Shown piece by piece: positions 2,253 through 16,656 of a stretch of DNA of 64,000 nucleotides (positions are counted from its first letter, which is position 1; the number at the start of each line of letters is the position of its first letter). Below the pieces are notes generated by a model. The model worked only from the letters and a program-made list of their open reading frames with translations. It was not told the DNA's origin and did no database searches. The position numbers and the translations under genes are program-made. The DNA lies in the IMG/VR virus record IMGVR_UViG_3300046542_000332, positions 1-64,000 of that record; one strand, 5' to 3'. This stretch comes from a virus.

Positions 2253-4913
2253 CTACTTTTTGATCACGATCAAGCGGCCATTTGCGCCGGTTTGCGCCAA
2301 CAGGTCTTTGTCCTTGAAGGTGCCCCCTTCCAGCTTTTCAATCGTGGCGTCATGCGTATCGAGCCAGGTGCGAAAAGCGACAGCCTTCTGGTCGGTACCG
2401 AAAAACACACCCTCCCCCGCAATCGCTACCAAGGTGCCGCCGCTGGCCAGCATGTCGAAGGCGCGCATGATGTGTGCCGCGTCCCGGCGCTGACTGAAAG
2501 GCGGGTTCATGAGGATGGCTTGATACGGCTGCTCGGGCGTGAAGCCGTCAAAGTCGTGATCCACCACGGTGTACCCCTTGGCCGTGAGGATGTTGCGCAG
2601 CTGGCTGGATATCTCGATCACGTCGACTTCGCCGCCGGCGGCCTTTGCAGCGTCCGCCAGGTTGCCGTTACCGGCGCTCGGCTCCAATACCCGCGTGCCT
2701 TGGGTGATACCCGCCAGCCTGGCCATGCGCTGCGCCACGTTTGCAGGCGTTGGGAAAAAGTCGATGCCGACCTTCTGGCCAATGATTGCCCGTTCGGCCT
2801 TCTTGACCGCGCTTTCTTCGGTCTTGGCCACCATCATCGGCAGCAGCTCACGCGCGGCCTCACGCAAGGTCGAGGCGTCGGTGATACCCATCCGCGCCAG
2901 ACGATCCTGGCGGGCCAGGCTTTCCACGGCATCTTGCAGCGTGTACCCCTCTTTCAGCCCCTTGAGCACGTCATAGGCCTTTCGGGTAATCGCGGCATCC
3001 TCGGGGTTCATGGTGAAGCGCTCAGCGCGGGCGCCCATCTTGTACAGGGCAGCAATCAGCCGGGCATTGCCGGTCGGGCTCTTCTTGGCGATGATCTTGG
3101 CGGCGTCGTTGTAGCGGCTCGCCCACGTTACCTGGCTCGGCATTACGACGTTTTTCAAGTCTTCGTCATCGAATGGGCGGCCTTTGCGTTTCAGCTGCTC
3201 GCTATAGCTCAGGCGCCGATCCGTCTCGTATTGCGCCAGGCGCAGCGCTCTTTGCAGCTCTTCCAGTTGGGCGCGGCTGCTGAGTTTGGTCAGCAGGCCA
3301 GCGGCGCCGACTTCGATAGCGTCCGCGATGTTGTTGAGCGTCAGGCCATCGGCCTTGTTGGTGGCGGCCTTGGCGATGGCGCTGGCGGCCATGCCGGCGC
3401 GTCTGGCGGTGTTGGTGAGCCGATCCCGGCCCATGTCCGCATCGCCACCTTCAACGGCCTTGCTCGCCACGCTGCGCAGCTTCTCTACTTGCGTGGCCAG
3501 GGCTTTCTGGCGGCGCTCTTCGGCCAGGCGCTCGTCCGTGGCGGCTTTCTCGGCTTGCTGATCGGGCGACAGCACCACCGGCGCCGGCGCGGCCTGAATG
3601 TGCGCGGTGTCGCCGCTCAGGTGCTTCTCGCGGATGAAATACCCGCCATTCATGCGCCAGGTGTAGGGGTCGATAGCCTTGGCTTCGGCCAGGCTCAAGT
3701 CCGTGCGGATGATCCCGCGCAGAACCTTTTCCTTCTTGGTGGTGTACTCAACGATTTCATGCTGCACCGCTGGCGCTGCGGCCGGCTGGTCAAGCGTGGC
3801 CTCTTCCACCACAGCCACCGGTACCGGCGCTGGCTCAATGGGAGCCCTGGCCGACTTTGCACGCTCCGAAAGGTGCTCATCCGACCATTGGCGAATGTAG
3901 GCGGTCGCTTTGGCGTTCCAGGCATCACGCGCCGACCCATTCGTGTAAGGCATTGGTTCTACGCCGGTGGCCCGGTATTCGGTCAGGCGCGCTTGCACCC
4001 AGCCCATATACCCGACTTGCACCATGGTGCGGCCAATGGCGTGAATATCCTCAAGGGTGTCCAAGTAGGCTTGATAGCGTGAGTTATTCACCCGCCCTTG
4101 CCCTATGGTTTCCTCCCAATCAGCTTGGCTCTGAGCTTCCCATTCGGCAGCGAATGCGTCGTTCTCGGCCTTGATGGCGGCCTTTTCATCATCCGTCAAC
4201 GCGGTGCTGTCGCCGGTACGCTTGGCATAAGCCATTCGTTCGGCGTCCTCGCGCGCTGCATTGTCGGCCTTGCGTTGCGCAATTGTGTCCTGCTCGGCCT
4301 GGTACGCCTCAACGTCGGCAGGCGCCGCATCTTCACCAAACACAGCCTTGTACTTCTCGGCGCCCCACTCCTGCGCCATCAGGCTTTTCAGCCTTGGCAG
4401 GTCGTTGGCAATCCCTGATAGCTTGCCCTCGACCGCCACCGAAACCCCGCCGATATCGGCATAGCTGTAAATCACCGCGCCCGACGCCAACGTCTCTTGG
4501 GTGCTCGGCAGATACTGCGCCAGCCGCGCCTGGCTCTTGGTCAGCAGCAGGCCGGTAGGCGCCTTGGTGTATTTGGCTTGGTCGAGATAGGTCCGCGCGT
4601 AGGTGTCCAGCGCGTCCGGGTCACCAACCACCAGCAGCCCGCCGTTTTTCTGCGGGATCTTGTCCGTGACCAGTTGCGTAGGCGCGGACTGTACCGGCTC
4701 AAGCGATGCCCCAGCATTGCGGCGACGTGTAGGCCGTCGAGAAACGCCAGCAGAGCCCAGCAGACCGCGCAGCTCCAAACCCCTGGCGCTGGCCCGTACC
4801 CGCTCAATCGGATTGAGCTTGTCGGCTTGCAGGGTGGCGCGCACCTCCAGAAGCTCAGCGCTAAAGCGCATTAGCTCCATGGCGCTAAAGTGGTTTCCTG
4901 CTAAATCAGTCAT
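2253..4913 (-). CDS. DarB-like polyvalent protein with C-terminal N6-adenine methyltransferase domain
   Basis: FFPTP, VLEPSAGNG (motif I) and ILMNPPF (motif IV); ATGACTGA overlap with the upstream gene; no SNF2 helicase visible. Confidence 0.75.
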   Translation of the reverse strand: MTDLAGNHFSAMELMRFSAELLEVRATLQADKLNPIERVRASARGLELRGLLGSAGVSRRPTRRRNAGASLEPVQSAPTQLVTDKIPQKNGGLLVVGDPDALDTYARTYLDQAKYTKAPTGLLLTKSQARLAQYLPSTQETLASGAVIYSYADIGGVSVAVEGKLSGIANDLPRLKSLMAQEWGAEKYKAVFGEDAAPADVEAYQAEQDTIAQRKADNAAREDAERMAYAKRTGDSTALTDDEKAAIKAENDAFAAEWEAQSQADWEETIGQGRVNNSRYQAYLDTLEDIHAIGRTMVQVGYMGWVQARLTEYRATGVEPMPYTNGSARDAWNAKATAYIRQWSDEHLSERAKSARAPIEPAPVPVAVVEEATLDQPAAAPAVQHEIVEYTTKKEKVLRGIIRTDLSLAEAKAIDPYTWRMNGGYFIREKHLSGDTAHIQAAPAPVVLSPDQQAEKAATDERLAEERRQKALATQVEKLRSVASKAVEGGDADMGRDRLTNTARRAGMAASAIAKAATNKADGLTLNNIADAIEVGAAGLLTKLSSRAQLEELQRALRLAQYETDRRLSYSEQLKRKGRPFDDEDLKNVVMPSQVTWASRYNDAAKIIAKKSPTGNARLIAALYKMGARAERFTMNPEDAAITRKAYDVLKGLKEGYTLQDAVESLARQDRLARMGITDASTLREAARELLPMMVAKTEESAVKKAERAIIGQKVGIDFFPTPANVAQRMARLAGITQGTRVLEPSAGNGNLADAAKAAGGEVDVIEISSQLRNILTAKGYTVVDHDFDGFTPEQPYQAILMNPPFSQRRDAAHIMRAFDMLASGGTLVAIAGEGVFFGTDQKAVAFRTWLDTHDATIEKLEGGTFKDKDLLAQTGANGRLIVIKK

Positions 4914-7227
4914 CGTGAGCCCCAAATATCGAGTCGAGTAAAGCGGTGTTTTCTAGCGCCTTCTCAAAGGCTTTTTCGTCGCGCAACGCCTGGAATACCT
5001 GGTCGAAAGCGGCATTTATGCGGGTGCGTTCTTCGCCCTCGGGGTAGGGCTTGAAGGGCTCCCCCAGTGCGGGGAAGTAGTGGTGTTTGTTGTCGGCCAG
5101 GCTGCTCAGGTAGTCGTTTTGGCGGTCCTTTTCCGCCAGCTTGTCCTCCAGGTAGCTTTGAAAGGCGCGGGCCGATAGCTCGTCATGACTGGACCAGTAT
5201 TCTTTGCTCTTGGCGCCATCGAGCAGCTTGGCCTCGGCCATGAACTTGGAAACGCCCCGGCCGGTGTTGAGCTGGATGTCGTTGGTACCCTCGGGGGCGT
5301 AGTAGGCGGCGGCCAGGGTTCGCCATTGCTTCTTGAGTTTCAGCAGGCGCTCGCTGTCGATCCCTGAGAAATGGGCGTCCACGGCGAGCACAGCGGCCTC
5401 AGCGCTACCGGCGGCCTTGATCTTGCGGCTTACCTCGTTGTGCGGGCTGTCGATGTTGTGCCGGGCGTTGGCGCGGTTCTTGTCGGTGAACTTGATCAGC
5501 TCTGGCAGGCGGTGGTCACCCTCGCTGATGGATTTCTTGAGCGCGGTGAACGCGTCACGAATTGGCCCCTCAGGCATCAGGCTCGGGTTTGCGCTGGCGA
5601 AGTCTTCGGCGCCGCCTTCCTCACCGCGCAGCACGCTGTGCAGGATGTTGTCGACCGCGTGCCAGCACTCGTGCCCCAGGCTGCCCCCGCCGTTCATCTT
5701 GGTGATGTTGATAACGCGGTGGATCGGCTCGTAATGCCCCTTCGCGGTGGCGCCGCCAGCGTTGCCGGTACCGCGCGCACCGAACGCCATGCCCAGGCGC
5801 CCGCCAAAACCCAAGGCCTTTTCGCTGATCCCCAGCATGTCGGCCATGTCCATCATGGCGCCAGCGGCCTGCTCGACGTGCCACTTGGCGCTGTCGATAT
5901 CCTTCTGTACCCAGTTGCCGGTTTGCACGGCGCGGAATCCGCACAGGGTTTCCAGATCCTTGGTCGAATTGATCGGTACCGTGCGCCCACCCTTGCGCTC
6001 AAAGACATCGATCACCTTGAGCGCGAAGGTCCGGCGCTTCTGCGTCACCTTCTTTTCAACGGTGGCCACGTCCTTCTCTGCCCACTCCCAGGTCTTGGGC
6101 TCGCCCGCCAGCGCATTGGCCGCGTGGTCGCGGAACGTGCTCGATCCGGCACGACTGCGGAACATGGTCGCCTTTATGAAACGCTCGCCCAGCGATAGCC
6201 ACGCCTGCGTCTCGGGCGACTTGAGGTTGCGCACCTTGGCGATATCAACGATTTCGCGCTGCTGCTTGTTGAGGGCCTGGCGCTGGCTATCCATGGCGTC
6301 GAGGCTGTCGCGGTTTTGCTCCAGGTTCGCCCGCCAAGCTTCGGTAGCCTTGCGCGACTCGGCTTCGGCGTCGGTTACGGCCTTTTCATGCTCGCCCGTC
6401 AGTTTCCAGCCACGGCTCAAACGCTTTTCAATGTCGTACTTGGCCGTGCGCGCCGTCGAACTGGCCAGGCTCATCGCGTTGTAAAACACGTTCTGATCGT
6501 CGCGGATCGCCTTGGCCTTTAGCGCCAGGTCGTGCGATTGCTGCCCCAGCGCCTTGTATTGGTCCGCTTCGTCGGCGTTGAGCTTGGCACCCATCAGCTC
6601 TTCGCGGATTTCATCCATCACCGCCAGCACGTCCTTACTGGTCTTGCACGACTCCATGCGGGTGCGCAGCGTCTCCAGGCCCAGCACAAACGATTTGCGG
6701 GCCTCTGGGGTATTCTCGCCAGGCTCTTTGCCTACGGCCGCGTAGGCGCGATCCAGGAGGAAACCGGCGGCCGGCTCCATACCACCGGCTTGTAGCGCGG
6801 ACCAATCAACCACGCCGAACAGGTTCGACTTGGTGATCAGCTTCTTGGCTTCGCGGGGGTTCGCTTCGATAGCGGTAAAATCGATGTCGCTGGCGCGCAG
6901 CATGGTGCCGGATTCACGAGCGCCACGGATCAGCTCGGTGGCTTCCTCTTTACGGCTGCCAGCGATATACCCGGTGTCTTTGTAGCGGTAGTTTTCGGCG
7001 TTCGGATCGTCGCTCAGGCCATCGTCAGCGGCGAACTCAGCGGCCTGCTCGGCATCGACGGGCTTGGCACCGTCCATAGGGGCGCCACCTAACGCGGTGT
7101 ACAGCGCCAGCGCCTCAGCAGTCACGCGAACTTGTGCAATGGGGTTGAGCGTGCCCGACTGTAGCTGCTCGCGAAGCTGTAACAGCTTGGCGGCGCTCCG
7201 GGCCTGTTCAAGGGGAGTGAGGGGCAT
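4906..7227 (-). CDS. Large polyvalent protein (HExxH metallopeptidase plus LPD1-like domain), probable internal head/anti-restriction protein
   Basis: GGSLGHECWHAVD zincin motif; C-terminal YWSSHDELSARAFQSYLEDKL...YPEGEER typical of LPD1. Confidence 0.7.
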   Translation of the reverse strand: MPLTPLEQARSAAKLLQLREQLQSGTLNPIAQVRVTAEALALYTALGGAPMDGAKPVDAEQAAEFAADDGLSDDPNAENYRYKDTGYIAGSRKEEATELIRGARESGTMLRASDIDFTAIEANPREAKKLITKSNLFGVVDWSALQAGGMEPAAGFLLDRAYAAVGKEPGENTPEARKSFVLGLETLRTRMESCKTSKDVLAVMDEIREELMGAKLNADEADQYKALGQQSHDLALKAKAIRDDQNVFYNAMSLASSTARTAKYDIEKRLSRGWKLTGEHEKAVTDAEAESRKATEAWRANLEQNRDSLDAMDSQRQALNKQQREIVDIAKVRNLKSPETQAWLSLGERFIKATMFRSRAGSSTFRDHAANALAGEPKTWEWAEKDVATVEKKVTQKRRTFALKVIDVFERKGGRTVPINSTKDLETLCGFRAVQTGNWVQKDIDSAKWHVEQAAGAMMDMADMLGISEKALGFGGRLGMAFGARGTGNAGGATAKGHYEPIHRVINITKMNGGGSLGHECWHAVDNILHSVLRGEEGGAEDFASANPSLMPEGPIRDAFTALKKSISEGDHRLPELIKFTDKNRANARHNIDSPHNEVSRKIKAAGSAEAAVLAVDAHFSGIDSERLLKLKKQWRTLAAAYYAPEGTNDIQLNTGRGVSKFMAEAKLLDGAKSKEYWSSHDELSARAFQSYLEDKLAEKDRQNDYLSSLADNKHHYFPALGEPFKPYPEGEERTRINAAFDQVFQALRDEKAFEKALENTALLDSIFGAHDD

Positions 7228-7261
7228 GGGAATGGGCCTACATAGTGGTATGCAAGCCCAT

Positions 7262-7303
7262 ATTTTGAGGCGCTAAAACGGGGTTACTCGGCGGCGCTTT
7301 GCT
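7262..7303 (-). promoter_or_regulatory. Late promoter (AGCAAAGC ... CAAAAT)
   Basis: Matches the GCAAA-30-YANNNT consensus upstream of the 773-aa gene. Confidence 0.55.
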
Positions 7304-7955
7304 CAGCGGCCGGGCGCTCGTGGAACACGTACTGCGCCATAAACTGCTTGAGCGTCATCAGCTCGGTGGTGGTGGTGTTCGGGCTTCTGATTTGAACGTC
7401 CATCCCGGTGAGGGTGTCCAGGTCGCCAACGTCAAGCATGTCGAGAATCCACTTGCGGCGCTTGTGCGGGAGCGTCACGCGCGGATTGGAGATAAAGACA
7501 TCGCCCAATTTCCAGTTCTTCGGCTTACTCATGTCCAGGCCGTGCACGTCGACCACGGCGCGCTCCGGCTCGGGCTCGGCGGGCTCGGGCTCTGAATTGA
7601 TCACGGCGGGCGTATCGTCCGAGAGAAGGTGATACGGCAGAAGGGAACGGCTCGCCTCGGTCAGGCTTGGCGGGGGCGGCACAGGCGCAACAGGTGCCGG
7701 CTCGCTTGCCAGCAGCGGCGCCAACGACGGACACGCCAGCAGATCCGCAAATGTCTTGTACAGGCCTTGCGCGGGCTCCATTGGCACGCACACATAGCCC
7801 AGCTCGGCCAGGCTGGTGTTTAACTCCCCCAGCAGCTTGGGGAGAGCACCGGCGCCGACGATCAGCACCCGTTGAGCTTCGATCACGGATGCCTTCGTCT
7901 GCGCCAGCTCGCGCATTACTTCGTCACTACCACGCACCGCTAATACTTCGCTCAT
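7284..7955 (-). CDS. Hypothetical protein
   Basis: 223-aa ORF with AAGGA/AGGG RBS, co-oriented with its neighbours. Confidence 0.6.
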   Translation of the reverse strand: MSEVLAVRGSDEVMRELAQTKASVIEAQRVLIVGAGALPKLLGELNTSLAELGYVCVPMEPAQGLYKTFADLLACPSLAPLLASEPAPVAPVPPPPSLTEASRSLLPYHLLSDDTPAVINSEPEPAEPEPERAVVDVHGLDMSKPKNWKLGDVFISNPRVTLPHKRRKWILDMLDVGDLDTLTGMDVQIRSPNTTTTELMTLKQFMAQYVFHERPAAEQSAAE

Positions 7956-7999
7956 GCCCTACGTCCTTAATGTCCGGTCGGCCCGAATGGCCGTAGGGC

Positions 8000-8047
8000 A
8001 AACTCTAAAGCACCAAAACGCTTAGCCGCTTTGGTGCCTTTGCGTCA
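8000..8047. repeat. Array of six degenerate 8-mers (RHH/ParG-type binding array)
   Basis: aaactcta aagcacca aaacgctt agccgctt tggtgcct ttgcgtca. Confidence 0.5.
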
Positions 8048-8048
8048 T

Positions 8049-8522
8049 TTACGCGGCGCGCTTGAGCATGCGCGGGCGCTTTGATACCTCCCCGGTTTTT
8101 TTCAGTGTGGCCTGGTACGCCTCGACCTTGGCCCGGATCACTTGCAGCTCTTCGGGCGTATGCGCCAGATCCACCGTGCCGTGGGTGGCCACGGTAAAGG
8201 CAATGTCCTCATTGTTCTTTCGACGCACCCCATGCAGCCGCACGCGGCGAGTAGGCCCGACATTCAGCTCTATGCGCAGTACGGTGCTGGCGACCTTCAT
8301 GCCACTCACCGGAAACCACACAACATCCCCCACGACCACTTGGCGCGCGGGCTTTTCCAGTAGCGTTTGCATATACGCCCGCGCGGCCTGGCCTCGCTTG
8401 GTCAGGAACGAGCCGCTACCGTGGCAGCGCGCACAATCAACGCCCGCGCGCAGGCCGGTACCGATGCAGTGGGCGCATTTGGTGGCCTCAAGCCGTGGCG
8501 CTTCCATAAGTGTCTTTGTCAT
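8049..8522 (-). CDS. CxxCxGxG zinc-finger protein
   Basis: CAHCIGTG...CARCHGSG. Confidence 0.7.
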   Translation of the reverse strand: MTKTLMEAPRLEATKCAHCIGTGLRAGVDCARCHGSGSFLTKRGQAARAYMQTLLEKPARQVVVGDVVWFPVSGMKVASTVLRIELNVGPTRRVRLHGVRRKNNEDIAFTVATHGTVDLAHTPEELQVIRAKVEAYQATLKKTGEVSKRPRMLKRAA

Positions 8523-8599
8523 ACGTTTTCTCTGGCGGTTTTAGTAATTCGTTCAAGGTATTGAGCTGGGGCTACCCTTCGGCACCCAGCTCGGCCCCT

Positions 8600-8812
8600 T
8601 TACTGATCGCGGCGAGGAATGCACGCCAGCTTCATGGAAAAGGACCCGGTGGTGGGTTCAGCACAAAAGGCCGCCAGTTCGGCCGCACGCTCACGCGCCG
8701 CGCGTTCTTGATACTGCACCGCCGCGATAGCCAGTAGCGGCAGGCCCACGACCAGCAGCGCGAAACCTAAGCGGCGGGTGATAGAGCGGGCTGGTGTGTT
8801 TGTAGTGGTCAT
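8600..8812 (-). CDS. Small membrane protein
   Basis: Single hydrophobic helix LGFALLVVGLPLLAIAAV; AAGGA RBS. Confidence 0.6.
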   Translation of the reverse strand: MTTTNTPARSITRRLGFALLVVGLPLLAIAAVQYQERAARERAAELAAFCAEPTTGSFSMKLACIPRRDQ

Positions 8813-8845
8813 GCGGATGATTCCTTTCAGATGTGTGCGAATTGT

Positions 8846-9064
8846 TTACGGCTTGGTACGCGCAGCCTTTAGATTTGCCTGGCATTTCGGGCAAACATCC
8901 TCCATGTACCCGTCCTTGGCCCGACGGCGAATCCATCCACCCTTCTTGGCCTCGGCCTTCATTTCCTTAGCCAAGTCCCGGCCAAGTGGCGTCATGGGCT
9001 TATCGCGCTCAATAATTTCATGGCAAATGTCACAGCCAATATCGCATTGATAAAACAGGGTCAT
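8846..9064 (-). CDS. Small zinc-ribbon protein
   Basis: CDIC...GWIRR...DVCPKC. Confidence 0.65.
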   Translation of the reverse strand: MTLFYQCDIGCDICHEIIERDKPMTPLGRDLAKEMKAEAKKGGWIRRRAKDGYMEDVCPKCQANLKAARTKP

Positions 9065-9089
9065 TGGTGGTGCCTTTTGCTCAAATTGG

Positions 9090-9320
9090 TTACAGGTCCA
9101 GCTCGCCTTGCGGGCGAGCCACTATGCGGCGGGTAAACTCGGCATGGCTGATTTGCCGTCCGGTCGCTCGCTCGATGATTACGTCCCCGCTACCGATACA
9201 GCCCTCTGTCGAGTTCAGGCCGCCCGATCCGCTACCGCCGCAATTGGTGCAGTTGCGGCCGTTATCGCGCACGCCATAGCCGGCGCAGCGCGGGCAGGTG
9301 CGAAAGTCGTAGTCGCTCAT
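9090..9320 (-). CDS. Small CxxCxGxG zinc-finger protein
   Basis: CPRCAGYG...CTNCGGSG; AAGGA RBS. Confidence 0.65.
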   Translation of the reverse strand: MSDYDFRTCPRCAGYGVRDNGRNCTNCGGSGSGGLNSTEGCIGSGDVIIERATGRQISHAEFTRRIVARPQGELDL

Positions 9321-9332
9321 GACTGGATTCCT

Positions 9333-9545
9333 TTAGCTTCGGTCGAATTGATCCATGTCCGTCTTGATGCTCTGCCAGCGCAGCACCGTATAGCGCCCAA
9401 GATTCAACTTGGTGTCGGTGGTGATCTGATCAGCATCCCCGCTCGTCTCGATCCACAGATTGATCAGCGGACGACCAAGGCCGCCACGGAACAGGCGCTG
9501 CAACAGGGTGCGTTTTAGCGGCTTTTCGGGTTGCGTGGCGCTCAT
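9333..9545 (-). CDS. Small hypothetical protein
   Basis: ATGA overlap with the upstream gene. Confidence 0.55.
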   Translation of the reverse strand: MSATQPEKPLKRTLLQRLFRGGLGRPLINLWIETSGDADQITTDTKLNLGRYTVLRWQSIKTDMDQFDRS

Positions 9546-10270
9546 TGGTCAGCGTCCTTATTGGTCGGCTCTGCGCTATCAGCGACGACGCGGCGAACAG
9601 CCTTCATCCCCTTGCGCGCATAAGGCATGCCTACAAAGATTGGCGCGCGCGGGGACACTGGCGACCAGGTAGCGGCATCATCCTCAATGAACTGGTCATC
9701 CTTCTCGATGATTTCGCCGTCTTCCAGCAAGCGATATTGCGTAGCGACCAAAACAGTCGGCTCTGCGCTGGCGGATAGGGCGGCTTCGATGTCCTTCGCC
9801 TGATGTCGCAGCAGGCAGGCTATGTCTCCTAGTGATTGAGGGGCGTCATCACCCCTTTGCGTGGCATTCAGCGCAGAATCACACCAGTGAGCCGCAAGTT
9901 TGAGCGCCTTTCGCAGTCGCTCAACCTCGCCCGCATCGGATCGGGTGTAGAGCGGATCACCCTCTTTCAGGGCCAGGCTCGCGCGAGGCTTCCACATGAC
10001 GCAGCCCAAGGCGTCAGATCGAAACCAGGCAACCGGCTGCTTTCCGGCTTCTTTCTGCTCAATCTGATCCTTCAACGCCTCGACCTTGGCCACGTCGCCG
10101 CCGGTTTCCTGCCAGAATTCCCACAGCGCCTGCTGTTTTGGCGGGCCGTATTTCTCAGCGCGCACGCCGTTGTGCATGTCGCGGGTCGGCGCGCCTGTGC
10201 AGTGCTTGGTCTTGTACTGCTCGCAGTGCCACGCCTCGAAGCCTTCGCGCATTTCTTCCTTGCTCATCAC
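9542..10270 (-). CDS. Mosaic phage protein (Ead/Ea22-like)
   Basis: REGFEAW, QPVAW...PLYT and EVERLR modules typical of Pseudomonas phage Ea22-like proteins. Confidence 0.6.
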   Translation of the reverse strand: MMSKEEMREGFEAWHCEQYKTKHCTGAPTRDMHNGVRAEKYGPPKQQALWEFWQETGGDVAKVEALKDQIEQKEAGKQPVAWFRSDALGCVMWKPRASLALKEGDPLYTRSDAGEVERLRKALKLAAHWCDSALNATQRGDDAPQSLGDIACLLRHQAKDIEAALSASAEPTVLVATQYRLLEDGEIIEKDDQFIEDDAATWSPVSPRAPIFVGMPYARKGMKAVRRVVADSAEPTNKDADQ

Positions 10271-10282
10271 TCACCCCTTCGT

Positions 10283-10786
10283 TTATTTGTCGCCGGACTG
10301 CGCGGCCTGTTTTTCCTGAGCAAGCTGCTCAGCTCTTTTGTTCAGCTCGCTTTCGGCTTCCACGCCCAACGCCAGCTCTTCCTCAATGGTCAGGCGGTAA
10401 TCGCGGACAGCGAACTCCAAGACGCCTTGGATATGCGCCATCCCGAGCGCGAGCGCCAGGCGTGAATCGGCCAATTGAAGCGCGTCGATGTGATGGCGCA
10501 CCAATTTATGGATTAGCTCCTTGGTCATCGGTGACGTGTAGCTACTCACCGGCTCCATGTTGGCCGCCAGCTGCTCAAGCGTGTACTGGACCGAATAAGG
10601 CGCCGGCCGGAACGTGGCCGGGTCTTGGCTCAGGTAGTTGCGCATGGTGCGCTCACTGATACCGATAGCCTCGGCGGCCTTGGCCTGAGTTATGCCGCAC
10701 GCCTTCACCAGGCTGCGCAGATAAGCCGCGTCTGGCTTGTGCAGGGCTGCATCAGGCTTGGCGCCATGAAGGTGTTTAAAACTCAT
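10283..10786 (-). CDS. aca1: Anti-CRISPR-associated protein Aca1 homologue with an extra C-terminal domain of about 85 aa
   Basis: KPDAALHKPDAAYLRSLVKACGITQAKAAEAIGISERTMRNYLSQDPATFRPAPYSVQYTLEQLA aligns along its length with Aca1 as recalled (PDASNHDPDPRYLRGLLKKAGISQRRAAELLGLSDRVMRYYLSED...RPAPYTVQFALECLA). Confidence 0.85.
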   Translation of the reverse strand: MSFKHLHGAKPDAALHKPDAAYLRSLVKACGITQAKAAEAIGISERTMRNYLSQDPATFRPAPYSVQYTLEQLAANMEPVSSYTSPMTKELIHKLVRHHIDALQLADSRLALALGMAHIQGVLEFAVRDYRLTIEEELALGVEAESELNKRAEQLAQEKQAAQSGDK

Positions 10787-10851
10787 TGGACTTTTCCCTT
10801 TGTTGGTACCAGAAAACCCCCAATCAAGGGGGCTGTTCTAGTCGCTGGCAG

Positions 10852-11103
10852 TTACGCGCCTACGGCTTCCTCTTCAACAGCGGTGCAATGATCGAGGCAG
10901 ACGCAACCGCTCTTGCCTTCCAGCCAGATAACAGCCGTGTGGCCGCTCAGAACCTGCGCCTCACTCTTCGACTTGCCCCGGAAGGTTTCGCCCTGGCCGA
11001 TAATCGACTCATACGAAACGGTGGTGCCTTCTGGATTGGCGGCGTTCCACTTGTCGCACTGTTTTTGCAGCTGGGCAGCGGACGGGCGTTTTGGTGCTGG
11101 CAT
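10852..11103 (-). CDS. Small hypothetical protein, candidate anti-defence gene directly upstream of aca1
   Basis: Start MPAPKRP with AGGAG RBS; 83 aa. Confidence 0.7.
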   Translation of the reverse strand: MPAPKRPSAAQLQKQCDKWNAANPEGTTVSYESIIGQGETFRGKSKSEAQVLSGHTAVIWLEGKSGCVCLDHCTAVEEEAVGA

Positions 11104-11170
11104 GGGTGAATCTCCTATGTTGGTACTGGAAAATCCCGCACGGGCGGGCTGGGGGCGCAGTGGATGGCGC

Positions 11171-11455
11171 TTAATGCTTGTGATGCTCGATACAAGCCGT
11201 TTCGCTTTCAAAGACCAGCTCAGCGCCAGCCAGGTTAAGCGGAATGCTCAGGTGCTCGGCCAGCCGCACAAAGCCGTTCTTGCTACCCAGAATCAGCATG
11301 TGGCCGGCGCACTGGTGATCCGTCTTCTTGTGGCAGACAAAGGAATCGGCCGCGAGGATTTCCTGCGTCCGTGGCGCCCCAAGCCAACCCTTTTGGGTGT
11401 CCTTTCGAAAAGGGCAGTCACGGCACGGCCGGGCCATGTTGGGCAGCTTTTGCAT
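11171..11455 (-). CDS. Cys/His-rich small protein (DUF6283-like), candidate anti-defence gene
   Basis: PCRDCPFRKD...FVCHK...QCAGH; AGGAG RBS. Confidence 0.7.
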   Translation of the reverse strand: MQKLPNMARPCRDCPFRKDTQKGWLGAPRTQEILAADSFVCHKKTDHQCAGHMLILGSKNGFVRLAEHLSIPLNLAGAELVFESETACIEHHKH

Positions 11456-11525
11456 CTGGTGACTCCTGGCTGTTATCTGGTAACTGGAAAGCCCGCACAG
11501 GGCGGGCTTGGATTGCGGGCTCGGT

Positions 11526-11861
11526 CTACGCCGGGATTTTCCGGCCTTCGGTTTTTATGGTGACTGCCATCTGCTCAGGATCATGACCTTTCTCCACGTA
11601 TTGGGCCTTGATGCCCTCTGCGGTCGCATCATCCGAAACCCAACCCTTGGCCAGGGTGGTCCAGCCGCCAAAGCCAACAAACACGCCATCGATCACCACG
11701 CGCTCGCGCTTCATCACATAGGCCAGCTGAGCCGGCTTGGTGAGATACACGAACCCATCTCCCTTGCACTTGAAGCAAACGCCATTCAAAACGTTACCGT
11801 GCTGCCATAGGCGTTTTTCGCCGGCGCATCGGGAGCAAGGCTTGGTTTTGAATTTGTTCAT
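11526..11861 (-). CDS. Zinc-finger protein, first gene of the aca1 operon, candidate anti-defence gene
   Basis: CSRC...GVCFKCKGDG; GGAG RBS; directly after the promoter. Confidence 0.7.
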   Translation of the reverse strand: MNKFKTKPCSRCAGEKRLWQHGNVLNGVCFKCKGDGFVYLTKPAQLAYVMKRERVVIDGVFVGFGGWTTLAKGWVSDDATAEGIKAQYVEKGHDPEQMAVTIKTEGRKIPA

Positions 11862-11897
11862 GGCGCTGTCTCCGGTGGTTTCGTTCAGCTTGGGAGG

Positions 11898-11926
11898 ATA
11901 ATAGGCACGGACTGCCTACATATCAA
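11898..11926 (-). promoter_or_regulatory. Sigma70 promoter TTGATA-17-TATTAT containing the Aca1-type operator TAGGCACGGACTGCCTA (11902-11918)
   Basis: Near-consensus -35/-10 with exact 17-nt spacing; inverted repeat TAGGCA-N5-TGCCTA resembles the known Aca1 operator TAGGCACAATGTGCCTA. Confidence 0.8.
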
Positions 11927-11934
11927 CAACTTTT

Positions 11935-11982
11935 TAACGTTTTAGCGCTTTAACTCATTTGAGGTATGGCGCTATACCGCCA
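11935..11982. repeat. Array of six degenerate 8-mers (RHH/ParG-type)
   Basis: taacgttt tagcgctt taactcat ttgaggta tggcgcta taccgcca. Confidence 0.55.
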
Positions 11983-11994
11983 TCGGGCGCCCAC

Positions 11995-12020
11995 AAAAAA
12001 GCCCGCGCGCGGCGGGCTTC
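11995..12020 (-). terminator. Intrinsic terminator after darA
   Basis: aagcccgc-gcgc-ggcgggctt stem followed by a U-tract on the minus strand. Confidence 0.75.
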
Positions 12021-12037
12021 TGGTCATGGGTTAAGGG

Positions 12038-15000
12038 TTAGAAGGCGCCAGCGGTGGCCTTGAGCGCGTAGTCCCGGAAGGCATCCGAGGCTTCGATAAA
12101 CAGCTCGCTCAGCTTGTCCTCGCCATAGGCCGCATAGATCCGCTCAAGCTCCTTGAGTACGTCGCCAGGGCTGCCCAGGTCGGTGGTGCCGCCAATGATG
12201 CTGTCCAAGTAGGATTTGGCTTGCTGCAAGCTCTCGTCCTCGTCTGGCTCGGGTACCGGCTCAGGCTCAGGGGCGGGGGAGGCCGCCGGTTGGCTAAACA
12301 TGTCGGTCTGGTCGATGGCAAACAGTCCCTCGCCATACTCCTGCTCAAGTTTGCGGTTGGCCGCGCCCACAATGTCGGTGAAGCTGGCCGGCTCATCACC
12401 AAATAGGCCGGCGGTCTGCTTGCGGATGTTCTCGCTCTCGACGAACTGCGCCATGGCCTTGAACGCGGTGCTCATGCGTTTGGCGCTGCGGTTGTTGGCA
12501 CTGATGAACACGGCCATGGCTGCTACGGCCGGATCGGTACCGCCGAACATGTCGCCTTGGCGCAGGAATTCGTCCAGGCCCATGCCGGCCTCTTTGGCCT
12601 GGCGCAGCACGTTGGTAGCGCCAATGATGGCGTTTACCGCTTCCTGATTCAGCGACAGCTCCAGGGAGTCTGTCACCTGCTCGCCGGCCTTCTCGGCGCC
12701 CACCCGGTCCTGTTCCTTGGCCCGCATGAAGTCAGGCGCGGCGCTGTTCAAGGCCGAAACGATGTTGGCAATCTCAGGCTTGGCCTGGTCCGCCGTCATT
12801 TCCAGCAAGCGGTCATCGGAGTAGGCGCCAGCAAACAGCGCGGCCTGTAGACGGCTGATCAGGCCCGACGTCGGTTTGCCGTCGGTGGTCAGGTACTGCG
12901 CCGCCTCGGCATCGCCCAGCGATTGCAGGAAGGCCGCCACAAAGTCACGGTTTGCCGCGCTGTTGAGGTCGCCGTCTGCCAGCTTGGCCAGCATGGCGGT
13001 GTCCAGGCGCTTGGCATCGCTGCGGGCTTTCTCGGTGGCGGTCATCGCCAGCTTGTCGTCCTGGTTCGCTTCCACGGCGAACTCCACGCGGTTGATGGCG
13101 GTTTTACGGACACGAATCAGCACCGGGGCTTTCATGCGCTGGATCTTGGCCACGTCCACGCCGAAGTATTCCGCGTTTTCCACCAGCCACTCGCGGTATT
13201 CATCCGCCTGGCCGATACGGTAGGCCTCACGGATCGCCATGGCGCGGCCGTTGCCCGACTCGACCACACGGTCAGCGCCAACGATAGGCGCGCCGCTGTC
13301 AGCGCGCTGGGTGCGCCCCAGGCTGTCCGGATCGAGGTTGCGGGCGGTTTTCTGTACCCAGGCCTGCGAAGTGGTGCGCGCACGGTCACGCGGCTGGATT
13401 TCTGGCGGGTACTCCGGGTTTACCGTGCCGTCCGTCTCGTGACTGATGATCAGGTTCTTCGCCTCGATCACCTTGAAGCCGGTCACGACCTTGGAGCCCT
13501 TCGCGGTCTTGACGGTGTTGTCGCGGCCTTCGGCCTCTATAGTGCCAGTGTCTTCGTCAGCGCCTGTATCTGCGGACAACTTAGCTGCTGCGGCTGCCTG
13601 AGCGGCTTCCTCGGCACGCTCTGCCAGATGCGCGGCCAACATGGCCTCTTCTTCTGGCGTCTCAGGCGCCACGGTGGAGGCGGCCTTGATAGCTTTGGCA
13701 GCCTCGGCCGGGGCCACGCCATCGGCGTAGAGCTGTTTCACCAGGGTGTTTTGGCCCAAGGCTACCGAGTCGGCATCACCGGTGCTGATGTCCATCAGTT
13801 CCGCCAGCGCTTCCAGTACATCGCCTTCCCAATCCAGGTAAGACGGCTTGGCGCCGGCGGCAGCTGGCTCACTCACTTCTGGCCCGCGATAGCCGGTGTC
13901 CCATAGCTGTTTGGCCATGTCGACCACATCACGCGACAGGTTGCCGTAGAAAGCATCACCAACGGCCATTCCGGCCAGGCGAGCGCGAGCACCAGTCAGG
14001 GCTCCGATCAAGCGCTGTACCTTTTCCGGGTCCGCGAGTGCTGGAACGGCGAACGGGTCAACAACGCCAGACAGGTCGACCACCTCGCCTACTTTCGGAT
14101 CATACACGTCGGTATTGAGCAACTTCGTCATGTACTGGACGCCATCCTTGACCAGATACACGTTTTCGGAGCCGGTGCTGAGCACTACTGCCTCGCCAAG
14201 GGCTGCAATGTCGGCGTAGTCCTCCAGGATCACGCTCGCGGTGCTTACGGGCGTTACCGGATCAGCTACCGGCGCCGTCTCCACGACTGGGGCAAGGGCA
14301 GGCTCAGCAGCCACCGGTGCGGCCTTCTTCGCCTCAAGCTGTGCGGTCAGGTCGCTGATCTGTGCGTCCAGGCTGGCCAGCTCGCCGGTTTTGGCTTCTA
14401 CCAGCGCCTTTTGCTCATCGAGCGCGGCGGTGCGGGCGGCCTTGCCTTCGTTGGCCTTGATGAACTTTGCGCTGTTCTTCTGGATCAGCGCCATGATGCG
14501 GCGGGCGACGATACGCGGGTTGATGTCCTGGCCGCTCTCGGGCGCCACCACGGCGGTGATGTCCTTCTTGTTCTGTACCCACTTCCAGCTGATCAACTCG
14601 TCGGATGGCGTCAGCTTGTTGGGCGTGCTGTCCGGGTTGTGAAAGAACACCGACACGCTCTGGCCGTCATCCATGGCGAAGAGCATGGCCACTTGAGTGG
14701 TGCCCTTGCTCTTGAATGGCTTGCTCACTTCAACGGTGGCCGCTTGGACTTCACCGCCCACGTTCTGCATCACCTTGAGCAGCTGAGCGGCCTTGCGTTC
14801 AAACTGCTTGTACTCGATCACCATGGCATCGAGCATGGCGGCGTCGTCGGCCAGGTGCTCAGTGATGTCGGCCATGGTGGCGCTGTCCATCAGCAGGCCG
14901 TCTGGATCGGTTCGGCGCAGCTCATACAGCAAGGCGCCCACGGTCTGCCCTTCCGGGAGGTTGTCAGCGCCCCAGCGCGCGAATACATCAGTCATGCTCA

Positions 15001-15983: not shown

Positions 15984-16619
15984 CTACGCCAACAGCGCCA
16001 GCACTTCGTCACGCAGCGCGCGTAACTCACGGGCGGCCAAGCCATTGGGTTGGGTATCGAGCGGGGTTTGCCCGGTCAGCTGCGCGTTCGGGTGTGCGGT
16101 ACGCGCCACGAGGCGCGATTGCAGCACCGGGAAGCCGTAGCCCGCCAGCGTCTTGGCAATGCTCTTGCTCAGTTTCGAGTTACCGAGGGCACGATTCACC
16201 ACGAAATACGCTCTCAGCGTCTGGCCGGTGCCTTCCAGCTCGTCCATGCGGTCTTGGATCATAGCCACGATGTCGCTGGTGGCCCACACGTCCAGCGGCG
16301 ACGGCGTGACCGGGATAATGACGATATCGGCCACGGCAATCGTTTTCTTGGCCAAGTCGGCGGCCTTCGCGGTGCCGTCGATGATCACGATGTCGTTGGT
16401 CAGGCGCGGGATCTGCGAAGCCAGCTGAGTGCTGGCGATGGTGTAGAGCGTTACCGGCTGATTCTCGTTCTCCCCGGCACAGTCCTGCATGCTGCCCTGA
16501 GGGTCGGAGTCGACCAGTGCCACGTCGCGGCCATACAGGTGCAGCGCTTGCGACAGCCCAAGGCAGATAGTCGTCTTGCCCACGCCACCCTTTCCGTTCA
16601 ACACCGCCAAAACTGTCAT
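15984..16619 (-). CDS. parA: Short ParA (ParF-like) partition ATPase
   Basis: NGKGGVGKTT deviant Walker A, DSDPQGS, IIDGT; about 211 aa with no N-terminal HTH. Confidence 0.9.
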   Translation of the reverse strand: MTVLAVLNGKGGVGKTTICLGLSQALHLYGRDVALVDSDPQGSMQDCAGENENQPVTLYTIASTQLASQIPRLTNDIVIIDGTAKAADLAKKTIAVADIVIIPVTPSPLDVWATSDIVAMIQDRMDELEGTGQTLRAYFVVNRALGNSKLSKSIAKTLAGYGFPVLQSRLVARTAHPNAQLTGQTPLDTQPNGLAARELRALRDEVLALLA

Positions 16620-16656
16620 GTCCTGCGCTCCATCCAATTGAGTATGGTGCGGATTC

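Follow-up and report, generated by a model that had tools for sequence, protein, structure and literature searches.

A probable Aca1-autorepressed cargo operon among Dar-type genes of an ~85-kb Pseudomonas phage-plasmid

The 64,000-nucleotide stretch of DNA analysed here (the window) comprises positions 1 to 64,000 of the IMG/VR virus record IMGVR_UViG_3300046542_000332. Reading down from position 11,926, it carries a promoter with a palindrome in its spacer, three small open reading frames (ORFs) and a gene for a homologue of the anti-CRISPR (Acr)-associated repressor Aca1. All features of this operon are on the minus strand, and the ORFs are numbered in the order of their transcription from the promoter (Table 1). 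A preliminary description of the locus had named the near-consensus promoter, the three small ORFs upstream of aca1 and the Aca1 homologue, all of which we recovered. The Aca1-type palindrome that it placed in the spacer is there as well, albeit with one half-site reading GGCAG rather than GGCAC. Its remark that the three ORFs all contain Cys residues is correct, but those of ORF3 are not conserved across the family of that protein.

The promoter is the only sigma-70-like site in positions 7000-12300. The inverted repeat covers positions 3-17 of its spacer and reaches two bases into the -10 element. Its 7-3-7 geometry is that of the published Aca1 operator IR2 (TAGGCAC-AAT-GTGCCTA), from which it differs by a single mismatch. 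Allowing up to one mismatch, TAGGCAC-N3-GTGCCTA occurs once in the window, compared with no occurrence in 100 shuffles, and once in the whole 84.7-kb record. Alignment of the window promoter (TTGATA-TG-TAGGCAG-TCC-GTGCC-TATTAT) with the acr promoter of phage DMS3 (TTGCGA-AT-TAGGCAC-AAT-GTGCC-TAATCT, 17-nt spacer), whose IR2 is that published for JBD30, places both operators in identical register. No upstream IR1 repeat was found at the window promoter; this repeat is missing from about 60% of acr-aca1 operons (PMC13551039). The Aca1 RNA motif reported in 2026 (PMC13551039) is not evident either, as the 39 nt formed by the 5' untranslated region (UTR) and the start codon (11859-11897) fold no better than shuffled sequences (z -0.54). 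On the upstream side, the intrinsic terminator that follows the DarA-type gene is predicted to insulate the promoter.

The helix-turn-helix (HTH) domain of ORF4 scores clearly as Aca1. Residues 10-75 match the solved Aca1 chains with E values of 1.9e-18 (7vjn) and 4.6e-18 (7c0g), the range over 7vjn, 7c0g and 7fa3 being 2e-18 to 5e-18, and the protein matches phrog_3865 (E 1e-24). The HTH is 52-58% identical to the Aca1 proteins of DMS3, JBD24, D3112 and 120 other Pseudomonas phage records. In the structure of Aca1 bound to IR2, the GGCAC half-sites are read by R44, R47 and R59, whose replacement by alanine abolishes binding, and V45, Y48, S42, Y49, Q32 and R22 assist in the contact (PMC8633003). 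In an alignment to solved Aca1, ORF4 retains the equivalents of R22, Q32, S42, R44, R47, Y49 and R59. Based on this homology, its DNA-binding domain belongs to the Aca1 family despite the length of the protein, which at 167 aa is twice that of a normal, single-domain Aca1 (~80 aa). Matches of PADLOC models to ORF4 (E 0.005-0.016) were weak and were taken as chance.

Sister operons provide further pairs of repressor and operator (L numbers designate the loci compared). In L036 and L034, whose Aca1 proteins have 77-82 aa and are 87% (L036, 77 aa) and 59% identical to ORF4, the operators are perfect TAGGCAC-N3-GTGCCTA repeats in the same promoter register as in the window. A second sub-lineage, L009, L018 and L019, encodes a diverged Aca1-family HTH that is 38-43% identical to ORF4 and matches Aca1 in the PDB with an E value of 5e-8. 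There, the spacer palindrome reads GGGCTAG-AAA-CTAGCCC or GGGCCAG-AAT-CTGGCCC, both arms having changed together so that symmetry is kept (promoter sites at about 3603-3631 in L009, about 4385-4413 in L018 and 1351-1379 in L019). Together, the homology, the identity and register of the operator, the uniqueness of the site and the co-variation across sisters strongly support the regulatory reading, and we infer that the operon is very probably autorepressed by Aca1.

Table 1. Positions and properties of the features of the operon and its borders in the window (stem energies in kcal/mol; z, score relative to shuffled sequences)
Feature	Position	Strand	Properties
Intrinsic terminator after DarA-type gene	11995..12020	-	GC hairpin, then T6; -23.8 kcal/mol, z -3.0
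Sigma-70-type promoter	11898..11926	-	TTGATA-17-TATTAT; 10/12 consensus matches
Putative Aca1 operator, 7-3-7 inverted repeat	11902..11918	.	TAGGCAG-TCC-GTGCCTA (minus); TAGGCACGGACTGCCTA (plus)
Short 5' UTR	11862..11897	-	Weak GCUG...CAGC hairpin, z -0.54
ORF1, 111 aa; variable cargo	11526..11861	-	N-terminal CxxC...CxxCxGxG zinc ribbon; C-terminal part without match
Junction J1 (before ORF2)	11456..11525	-	GC hairpin, T run, CCAGTTACCA tail, ribosome-binding site; -14.3 kcal/mol, z -2.9
ORF2, 94 aa, DUF6283 zinc protein; variable cargo	11171..11455	-	PF19800
Junction J2 (before ORF3)	11104..11170	-	Hairpin, TTTTCCAGTACCAACA, ribosome-binding site
ORF3, 83 aa; conserved aca partner in lineage	10852..11103	-	N-terminal helix and SH3/Tudor/Sm-like barrel
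Junction J3 (before aca1)	10787..10851	-	-21 kcal/mol, z -4.4, T4 run
ORF4, Aca1 homologue, 167 aa	10283..10786	-	
Aca1 domain of ORF4, residues 1-76	10559..10786	-	PDB Aca1 match
C-terminal extension of ORF4, residues 77-167 (91 aa)	10283..10558	-	Helical, unique
ORF5 to ORF10 (241, 70, 76, 72, 70, 157 aa)	8049..10267	-	Gaps of 0-77 nt
Terminator-like hairpin after ORF10	7990..8048	-	-25.4 kcal/mol, z -3.0, then UUUAGAGUUUG
ORF11, 223 aa, conserved in sisters	7284..7955	-	Homologues 64% identical in L034, L036

The second half of ORF4 is specific to the window. The reading frame runs through into an in-frame ATG (10558-10556), after which 91 residues follow. The sister Aca1 proteins terminate at ...EQLAAN(T) and have no such tail; in L036, the aca1 stop codon overlaps the ATG of the next gene. 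The extension would have arisen when aca1 became joined in frame to a gene that formerly lay downstream, at the start codon of that gene, and it may be a recent accident. A contig of 9,124 nt from an independent Logan assembly of the probable source sample, a rhizosphere metagenome (51x depth), shows zero differences from the window over 10272-12000; as it agrees across the fusion, the latter cannot be put down to the IMG/VR assembly alone. We found no homologue of the tail: tblastn returned no match in phages at E values up to 1, and the ESM Atlas yielded no usable match. A viral-contig search for loci related to ORF4 as a whole had no match. In the ESM Atlas model of ORF4, the tail resembles generic helical-hairpin or helical-bundle models. 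The tail could have no effect, provide an additional means of oligomerisation or serve as an effector.

ORF1 belongs to no family over the cut-offs of Pfam, PHROGs or the PDB sequences. It has four homologues among 5.8 billion proteins, one of them, 67% identical, on a 182-kb compost contig, and the viral-contig search for related loci gave no match. Its zinc ribbon recurs in the 104-aa product of the L036 gene immediately upstream of the ORF3 homologue. Paired CxxC motifs of the zinc-finger type are present in four small proteins of the operon (11526-11861, 9090-9320, 8846-9064 and 8049-8522), and ORF1, ORF7 and ORF10 harbour CxxCxGxG signatures of the DnaJ/anti-TRAP type.

ORF2 matches the DUF6283 model at 30.5 bits, above the gathering cut-off of 27. 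The family comprises 170 clusters at 50% identity, with C11, C14 and C49 invariant and C41 and H42 conserved in about 90%. Proteins of Vibrio, Pseudoalteromonas and Flavobacterium phages, i.e. of phages of different phyla, share 55-62% identity with ORF2, and Croceibacter and Erythrobacter phages also encode matching proteins. In longer relatives, DUF6283 is joined to either DUF1643 or a weakly matching methyltransferase domain. The AlphaFold2 model of ORF2 (pLDDT 97.1) had no Foldseek match in the PDB, and VIA-align retrieved none of 48,161 chains at Z >=2; the fold is common only to uncharacterised viral proteins. According to this model, ORF2 may adopt a new zinc-stabilised fold. A literature search for DUF6283 found no paper.

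ORF3 matches phrog_9165 (E 1e-16), and its family is found in 150 plasmid records and many phages (Pseudomonas plasmids and phages). Structural matches of its AlphaFold2 model (pLDDT 79) are generic barrels (best Z 6.0); Hfq and the Rho inhibitor YaeO are weakly similar. On plasmids, the ORF3 genes belong to series of small genes, with par and MvaT genes close by. In F116-like phages, the homologue is in the early region by the repressor, adjoining a paralogue. We noted an ORF3-like domain at the C-terminus of the protein encoded beside the stand-alone copy in the F116-like loci L002 (3709-4080, F116p24) and L003 (3769-4140). Paralogues of the F116p24 type are annotated as transcriptional regulator or carbon storage regulator, the latter in one F116-like record.

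Do the relatives of these genes neighbour aca or acr genes in unrelated elements, as expected if they were anti-CRISPRs? We searched the ORFs of 95 ORF3-homologue loci with a hidden Markov model of five Aca1-family sequences. An Aca1-family gene directly follows the ORF3 homologue in five of them, L019, L034, L035, L036 and L037; L035 lies on the contig of L009, and L037 is the element of L018. The lineage of ~80-85 kb phage-plasmids to which the window belongs accounts for all five, indicating that the association of ORF3 with aca is real but lineage-specific. Three phage contexts of ORF2 homologues were inspected: the surrounding genes are early ones or serve replication or recombination, and no aca gene is among them.

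Within this lineage, ORF3 is immediately upstream of aca in all six members (the window, L009, L018, L019, L034 and L036). A gene of the PAPS-reductase family, absent from the window, lies just upstream of the ORF3 homologue in L009 (4213-4980), L017 (5191-5949) and L018 (4677-5441), with a short unannotated ORF between the two in L018. L019 encodes a 382-aa protein with a sub-threshold C5-methylase match, L034 keeps a 26-codon remnant of ORF2, and the remaining sister cargo consists of families without match. From these comparisons, ORF3 and aca appear to form a constant core, while the other cargo genes would be exchanged among sisters.

The gaps upstream of ORF2, ORF3 and ORF4 share one layout: a GC hairpin, a run of three to four T, a (C/G)CAGTACCA tail and a ribosome-binding site. 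J1 aligns with junctions of L009 and L018; the J2 element recurs, with other stem sequences, in front of the ORF3 homologues of L018, L019 and L036; and J3 is kept in L036. Junction elements of the sisters are at 3856-3934, 4138-4215 and 5250-5323 in L009 and at 4601-4680, 5640-5710 and 5950-6031 in L018. Their stems vary in sequence yet remain paired, with compensatory changes in two of six pairs, and the tail is conserved. Outside the operon, only chance-level matches to the tail motif occur in the window. In contigs of a relative from sequencing run X2, homology to ORF1 stops at 11478, right past the junction tail, and homology to aca1 stops at 10557, the canonical end of Aca1. These breakpoints, the sole basis for proposing a role in recombination, point to the junction elements as marks of cargo exchange. 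The cassettes would be joined at conserved hairpin-CCAGTACCA junctions, where cargo appears to be swapped among sisters. The elements may in addition be partial terminators or RNA stabilisers. At 10259-10308, where ORF4 ends and ORF5 starts, ~50 bp are common to several contigs of the probable source metagenome at high summed depth, after which the contigs diverge. This segment looks like a mosaic breakpoint among co-occurring elements.

The seven ORFs after aca1 had been proposed to belong to the same unit, which our analyses bear out in part. ORF5 to ORF10 are probably co-transcribed with the operon, and homologues of ORF6, ORF10 and ORF11 follow aca1 in L036 and L034. On the other hand, ORF10 is followed by the first strong terminator-like hairpin past aca1, which is the probable 3' end of the operon, and ORF11 is possibly a separate transcription unit. 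The terminator scan missed this hairpin, probably owing to the bounds that it sets on stem and loop. No family over cut-off was found for ORF5 to ORF10, ORF10 giving a weak anti-TRAP/DnaJ zinc-finger match; ORF7, ORF8 and ORF10 are Cys-rich and zinc-finger-like. ORF11 has no family match. In L036, a 123-aa gene after aca1 is weakly DUF6283-like (pairwise E 1e-4, CxxCPF...CHK motif) and is not recognised as DUF6283 by Pfam.

The source record is an 84,719-bp IMG/VR virus of 98% estimated completeness, which encodes tail, tail-fibre and terminase proteins and also ParA. The operon is flanked upstream by a protein combining DarA_N, InPase and ddrB-ParB domains, with an Hdf-like gene farther upstream, and downstream by LPD1 and methyltransferase polyvalent proteins; a polyvalent protein of 773 aa follows ORF11. 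The families of a P1-type Dar locus are thus represented (PF18788, PF18763, PF18823 and the Hdf-like phrog_1620), and the methyltransferase corresponds to phrog_15406 and PF13489. Close relatives have been deposited as plasmids of Pseudomonas isolates, one of 80,993 bp and circular (P. fluorescens DR133) and one of 81 kb (P. atacamensis), and P. azerbaijanoccidentalis has a third on a contig of 82.7 kb. With the plasmid deposits, the tail, terminase and ParA genes and the Dar-type flanks, both the assignment to a phage-plasmid and the position between darA and darB-like genes, as given in the preliminary description, hold. By gene content, the element is a Dar-carrying Pseudomonas phage-plasmid of ~85 kb, and its host is probably a Pseudomonas of the fluorescens group. 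Searches of phage and plasmid collections for near-identical DNA gave nothing useful, runs X2 and X3 contain only short diverged parts of the locus, and none of the sequencing runs listed is an RNA data set carrying it. In sister elements, parA and a partner gene directly follow the aca operon (L009 6050-6754; L018 6557-7252). The ParA gene of the window (15984-16637) is upstream of darA, and ORF5 to ORF11 fill the place of parA in the sisters, which indicates that the maintenance module has been rearranged.

Altogether, we consider it rather probable that the locus is an Aca1-autorepressed early cargo operon of this phage-plasmid. Upon entry, host RNA polymerase would fire the strong promoter, and the cargo genes and aca1 would share a transcript, probably one that reaches the hairpin behind ORF10. 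Accumulating Aca1 dimers would then bind the 17-bp operator between the -35 and -10 elements, exclude the polymerase and shut the operon, as in acrIF1-aca1 of JBD30. The window cargo would be ORF1, with its zinc ribbon, and the DUF6283 protein ORF2, next to the constant ORF3-aca core. Most likely, this cargo has an early function, either in countering host defences or in establishment, a role made plausible by the context and by cargo turnover. The nature of the cargo slot is consistent with it: the sisters carry PAPS-reductase-family and weakly C5-methylase-like genes there, Dar and Hdf genes flank the operon, and homologues of ORF2 and ORF3 are found in early regions of other phages. Several observations weigh against this reading. 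The operator has an imperfect half-site, and the recognition helix of ORF4 differs from that of JBD30 Aca1 by V45T and Y48N. No cargo protein matches a known anti-defence family, and Aca homologues occur without acr genes (PMC9410906; PMC8633003). Finally, further genes follow aca1 in the operon, and the junction hairpins with T runs might partly terminate transcription, so that not all ten genes need be co-transcribed.

The preliminary description considered ORF1 to ORF3 to be new Acrs, and the locus does resemble a classical acr-aca1 operon, in which at least one of them would inhibit CRISPR-Cas of type I-F, I-E, I-C or IV in Pseudomonas, with its expression after the burst limited by Aca1. 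Promoter, operator and repressor are of the JBD30/DMS3 type, phages of that type have Acrs directly upstream of aca1 where the small ORF1 to ORF3 lie, and ORF1, like many Acrs, is rare. As the preliminary description had stated, however, these proteins match no recognised Acr. Pfam, PHROGs, PADLOC, NCBIfam and the PDB sequences contain no known Acr or anti-defence match for ORF1 to ORF3 (PADLOC, which has no match to the cargo at all, models defence rather than anti-defence proteins), and the models of ORF2 and ORF3 match no solved structure in the PDB that is an Acr. Moreover, close homologues of ORF2 are spread over Flavobacterium, Vibrio and Pseudoalteromonas phages, and the broad ORF3 family has an Aca1-family neighbour in a single lineage. 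Cas1 was detected in 12 of 201 species genomes in the genus of the host of L019, and it was not found in the genome of L019's own host; this scarcity lowers the prior for CRISPR-Cas as the target of the cargo. The anti-CRISPR reading of ORF1 to ORF3 is not supported, and a classical acr-aca1 locus is distinctly unlikely; non-CRISPR targets are more likely than any particular CRISPR-Cas type.

An Aca1-family repressor might instead govern genes unrelated to defence, for early host takeover, DNA metabolism or plasmid establishment, the likeness to acr operons reflecting reuse of a burst-then-off module. Aca homologues without acr partners are documented, relatives of ORF2 carry DUF1643 or methyltransferase-like domains and, in Flavobacterium and Pseudoalteromonas phages, are encoded among genes for replication and recombination, and ORF3 combines an Sm/SH3-like barrel with a paralogue called carbon storage regulator in one F116-like record and with plasmid neighbourhoods near par and MvaT genes. 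We nevertheless find this unlikely, given that the operon is embedded among anti-restriction genes of the Dar/Hdf type, that its content is swapped between close relatives, as is typical of arms-race cargo, and that sister cargo includes enzymes of the DNA-modification type. Much less probable still is that ORF3 is no cargo but a regulatory partner of Aca (an anti-repressor, a co-repressor or an RNA-binding modulator). Such a partnership would explain why ORF3 stays by aca, through two Aca1 subtypes and their operators, while everything else is swapped, even the type of aca and operator, and the barrel with its faint likeness to Hfq and YaeO would suit it; yet about 90 of the 95 ORF3 loci have no Aca1-family neighbour, and the fold matches are generic (Z <=6). 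We also entertain, as quite improbable, a more far-reaching version of the cargo-operon reading, in which a hairpin-CCAGTACCA cassette-exchange system would swap counter-defence genes under a single Aca burst promoter. In this version, the DUF6283 protein would inhibit, over a broad range, some conserved factor of defence or of the host, and the Aca1 tail would give the repressor a second function.

If the locus is indeed an Aca1-autorepressed cargo operon, the Aca1 module of the JBD30 type reaches beyond Mu-like phages of P. aeruginosa into large phage-plasmids that carry Dar genes in environmental Pseudomonas, a genus where CRISPR is rare. This distribution argues for a general burst-then-off switch for early cargo, which would make Aca1 unreliable as a flag for anti-CRISPRs. 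The locus yields ORF1, the DUF6283 protein, the ORF3 family and the Aca1 tail as candidates for study. The six sister operons with their differing cargo form a natural comparison set, and the repeated junction element may account for the mode of cargo exchange.

Relative to known systems, three features are unusual: the Aca1 fusion, the junctions between cassettes and the fold of the DUF6283 protein. The flanks recall the Dar locus of phage P1 in their DarA_N, Hdf-like and ddrB-ParB domains and in their methyltransferases of the polyvalent type, but the domain fusions differ, and P1 is not known to have an Aca-controlled operon inside dar. T4 PeSL elements and integron cassettes provide regulatory or recombination joints between small genes. 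The likeness lies in short, structured elements that are repeated at gene boundaries and coincide with exchange breakpoints; the junction sequence of the window is unrelated to them and shows no integrase or attC features. Anti-defence islands by aca genes or in plasmid leading regions have reportedly been described by Pinilla-Redondo and colleagues in 2020 and by Samuel and Burstein in 2024. Like the putative island of the window, they cluster diverse counter-defence genes under early expression, but that of the window is placed between Dar-type proteins delivered with the capsid and has no member in a recognised anti-defence family.

ORF4 is comparable to the HTH-Acr fusions AcrIF24, AcrIIA1, AcrIIA15 and AcrIE10 in that an autorepressor domain and a second domain share one polypeptide, although its second domain is a unique helical tail without homologue. 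In contrast with the acrIF1-aca1 and acrIE3-aca1 operons of the Mu-like phages JBD30 and DMS3, the operon of the window is carried by a large Dar-type phage-plasmid, has no IR1 and one imperfect half-site, and contains three upstream genes with hairpin junctions, none of them a known Acr, a 167-aa Aca1 and at least six genes after aca1. With those same operons it shares small genes upstream of aca1, an HTH of 52-58% identity and a TA-flanked GGCAC-N3-GTGCC operator in equal register within a 17-nt spacer.

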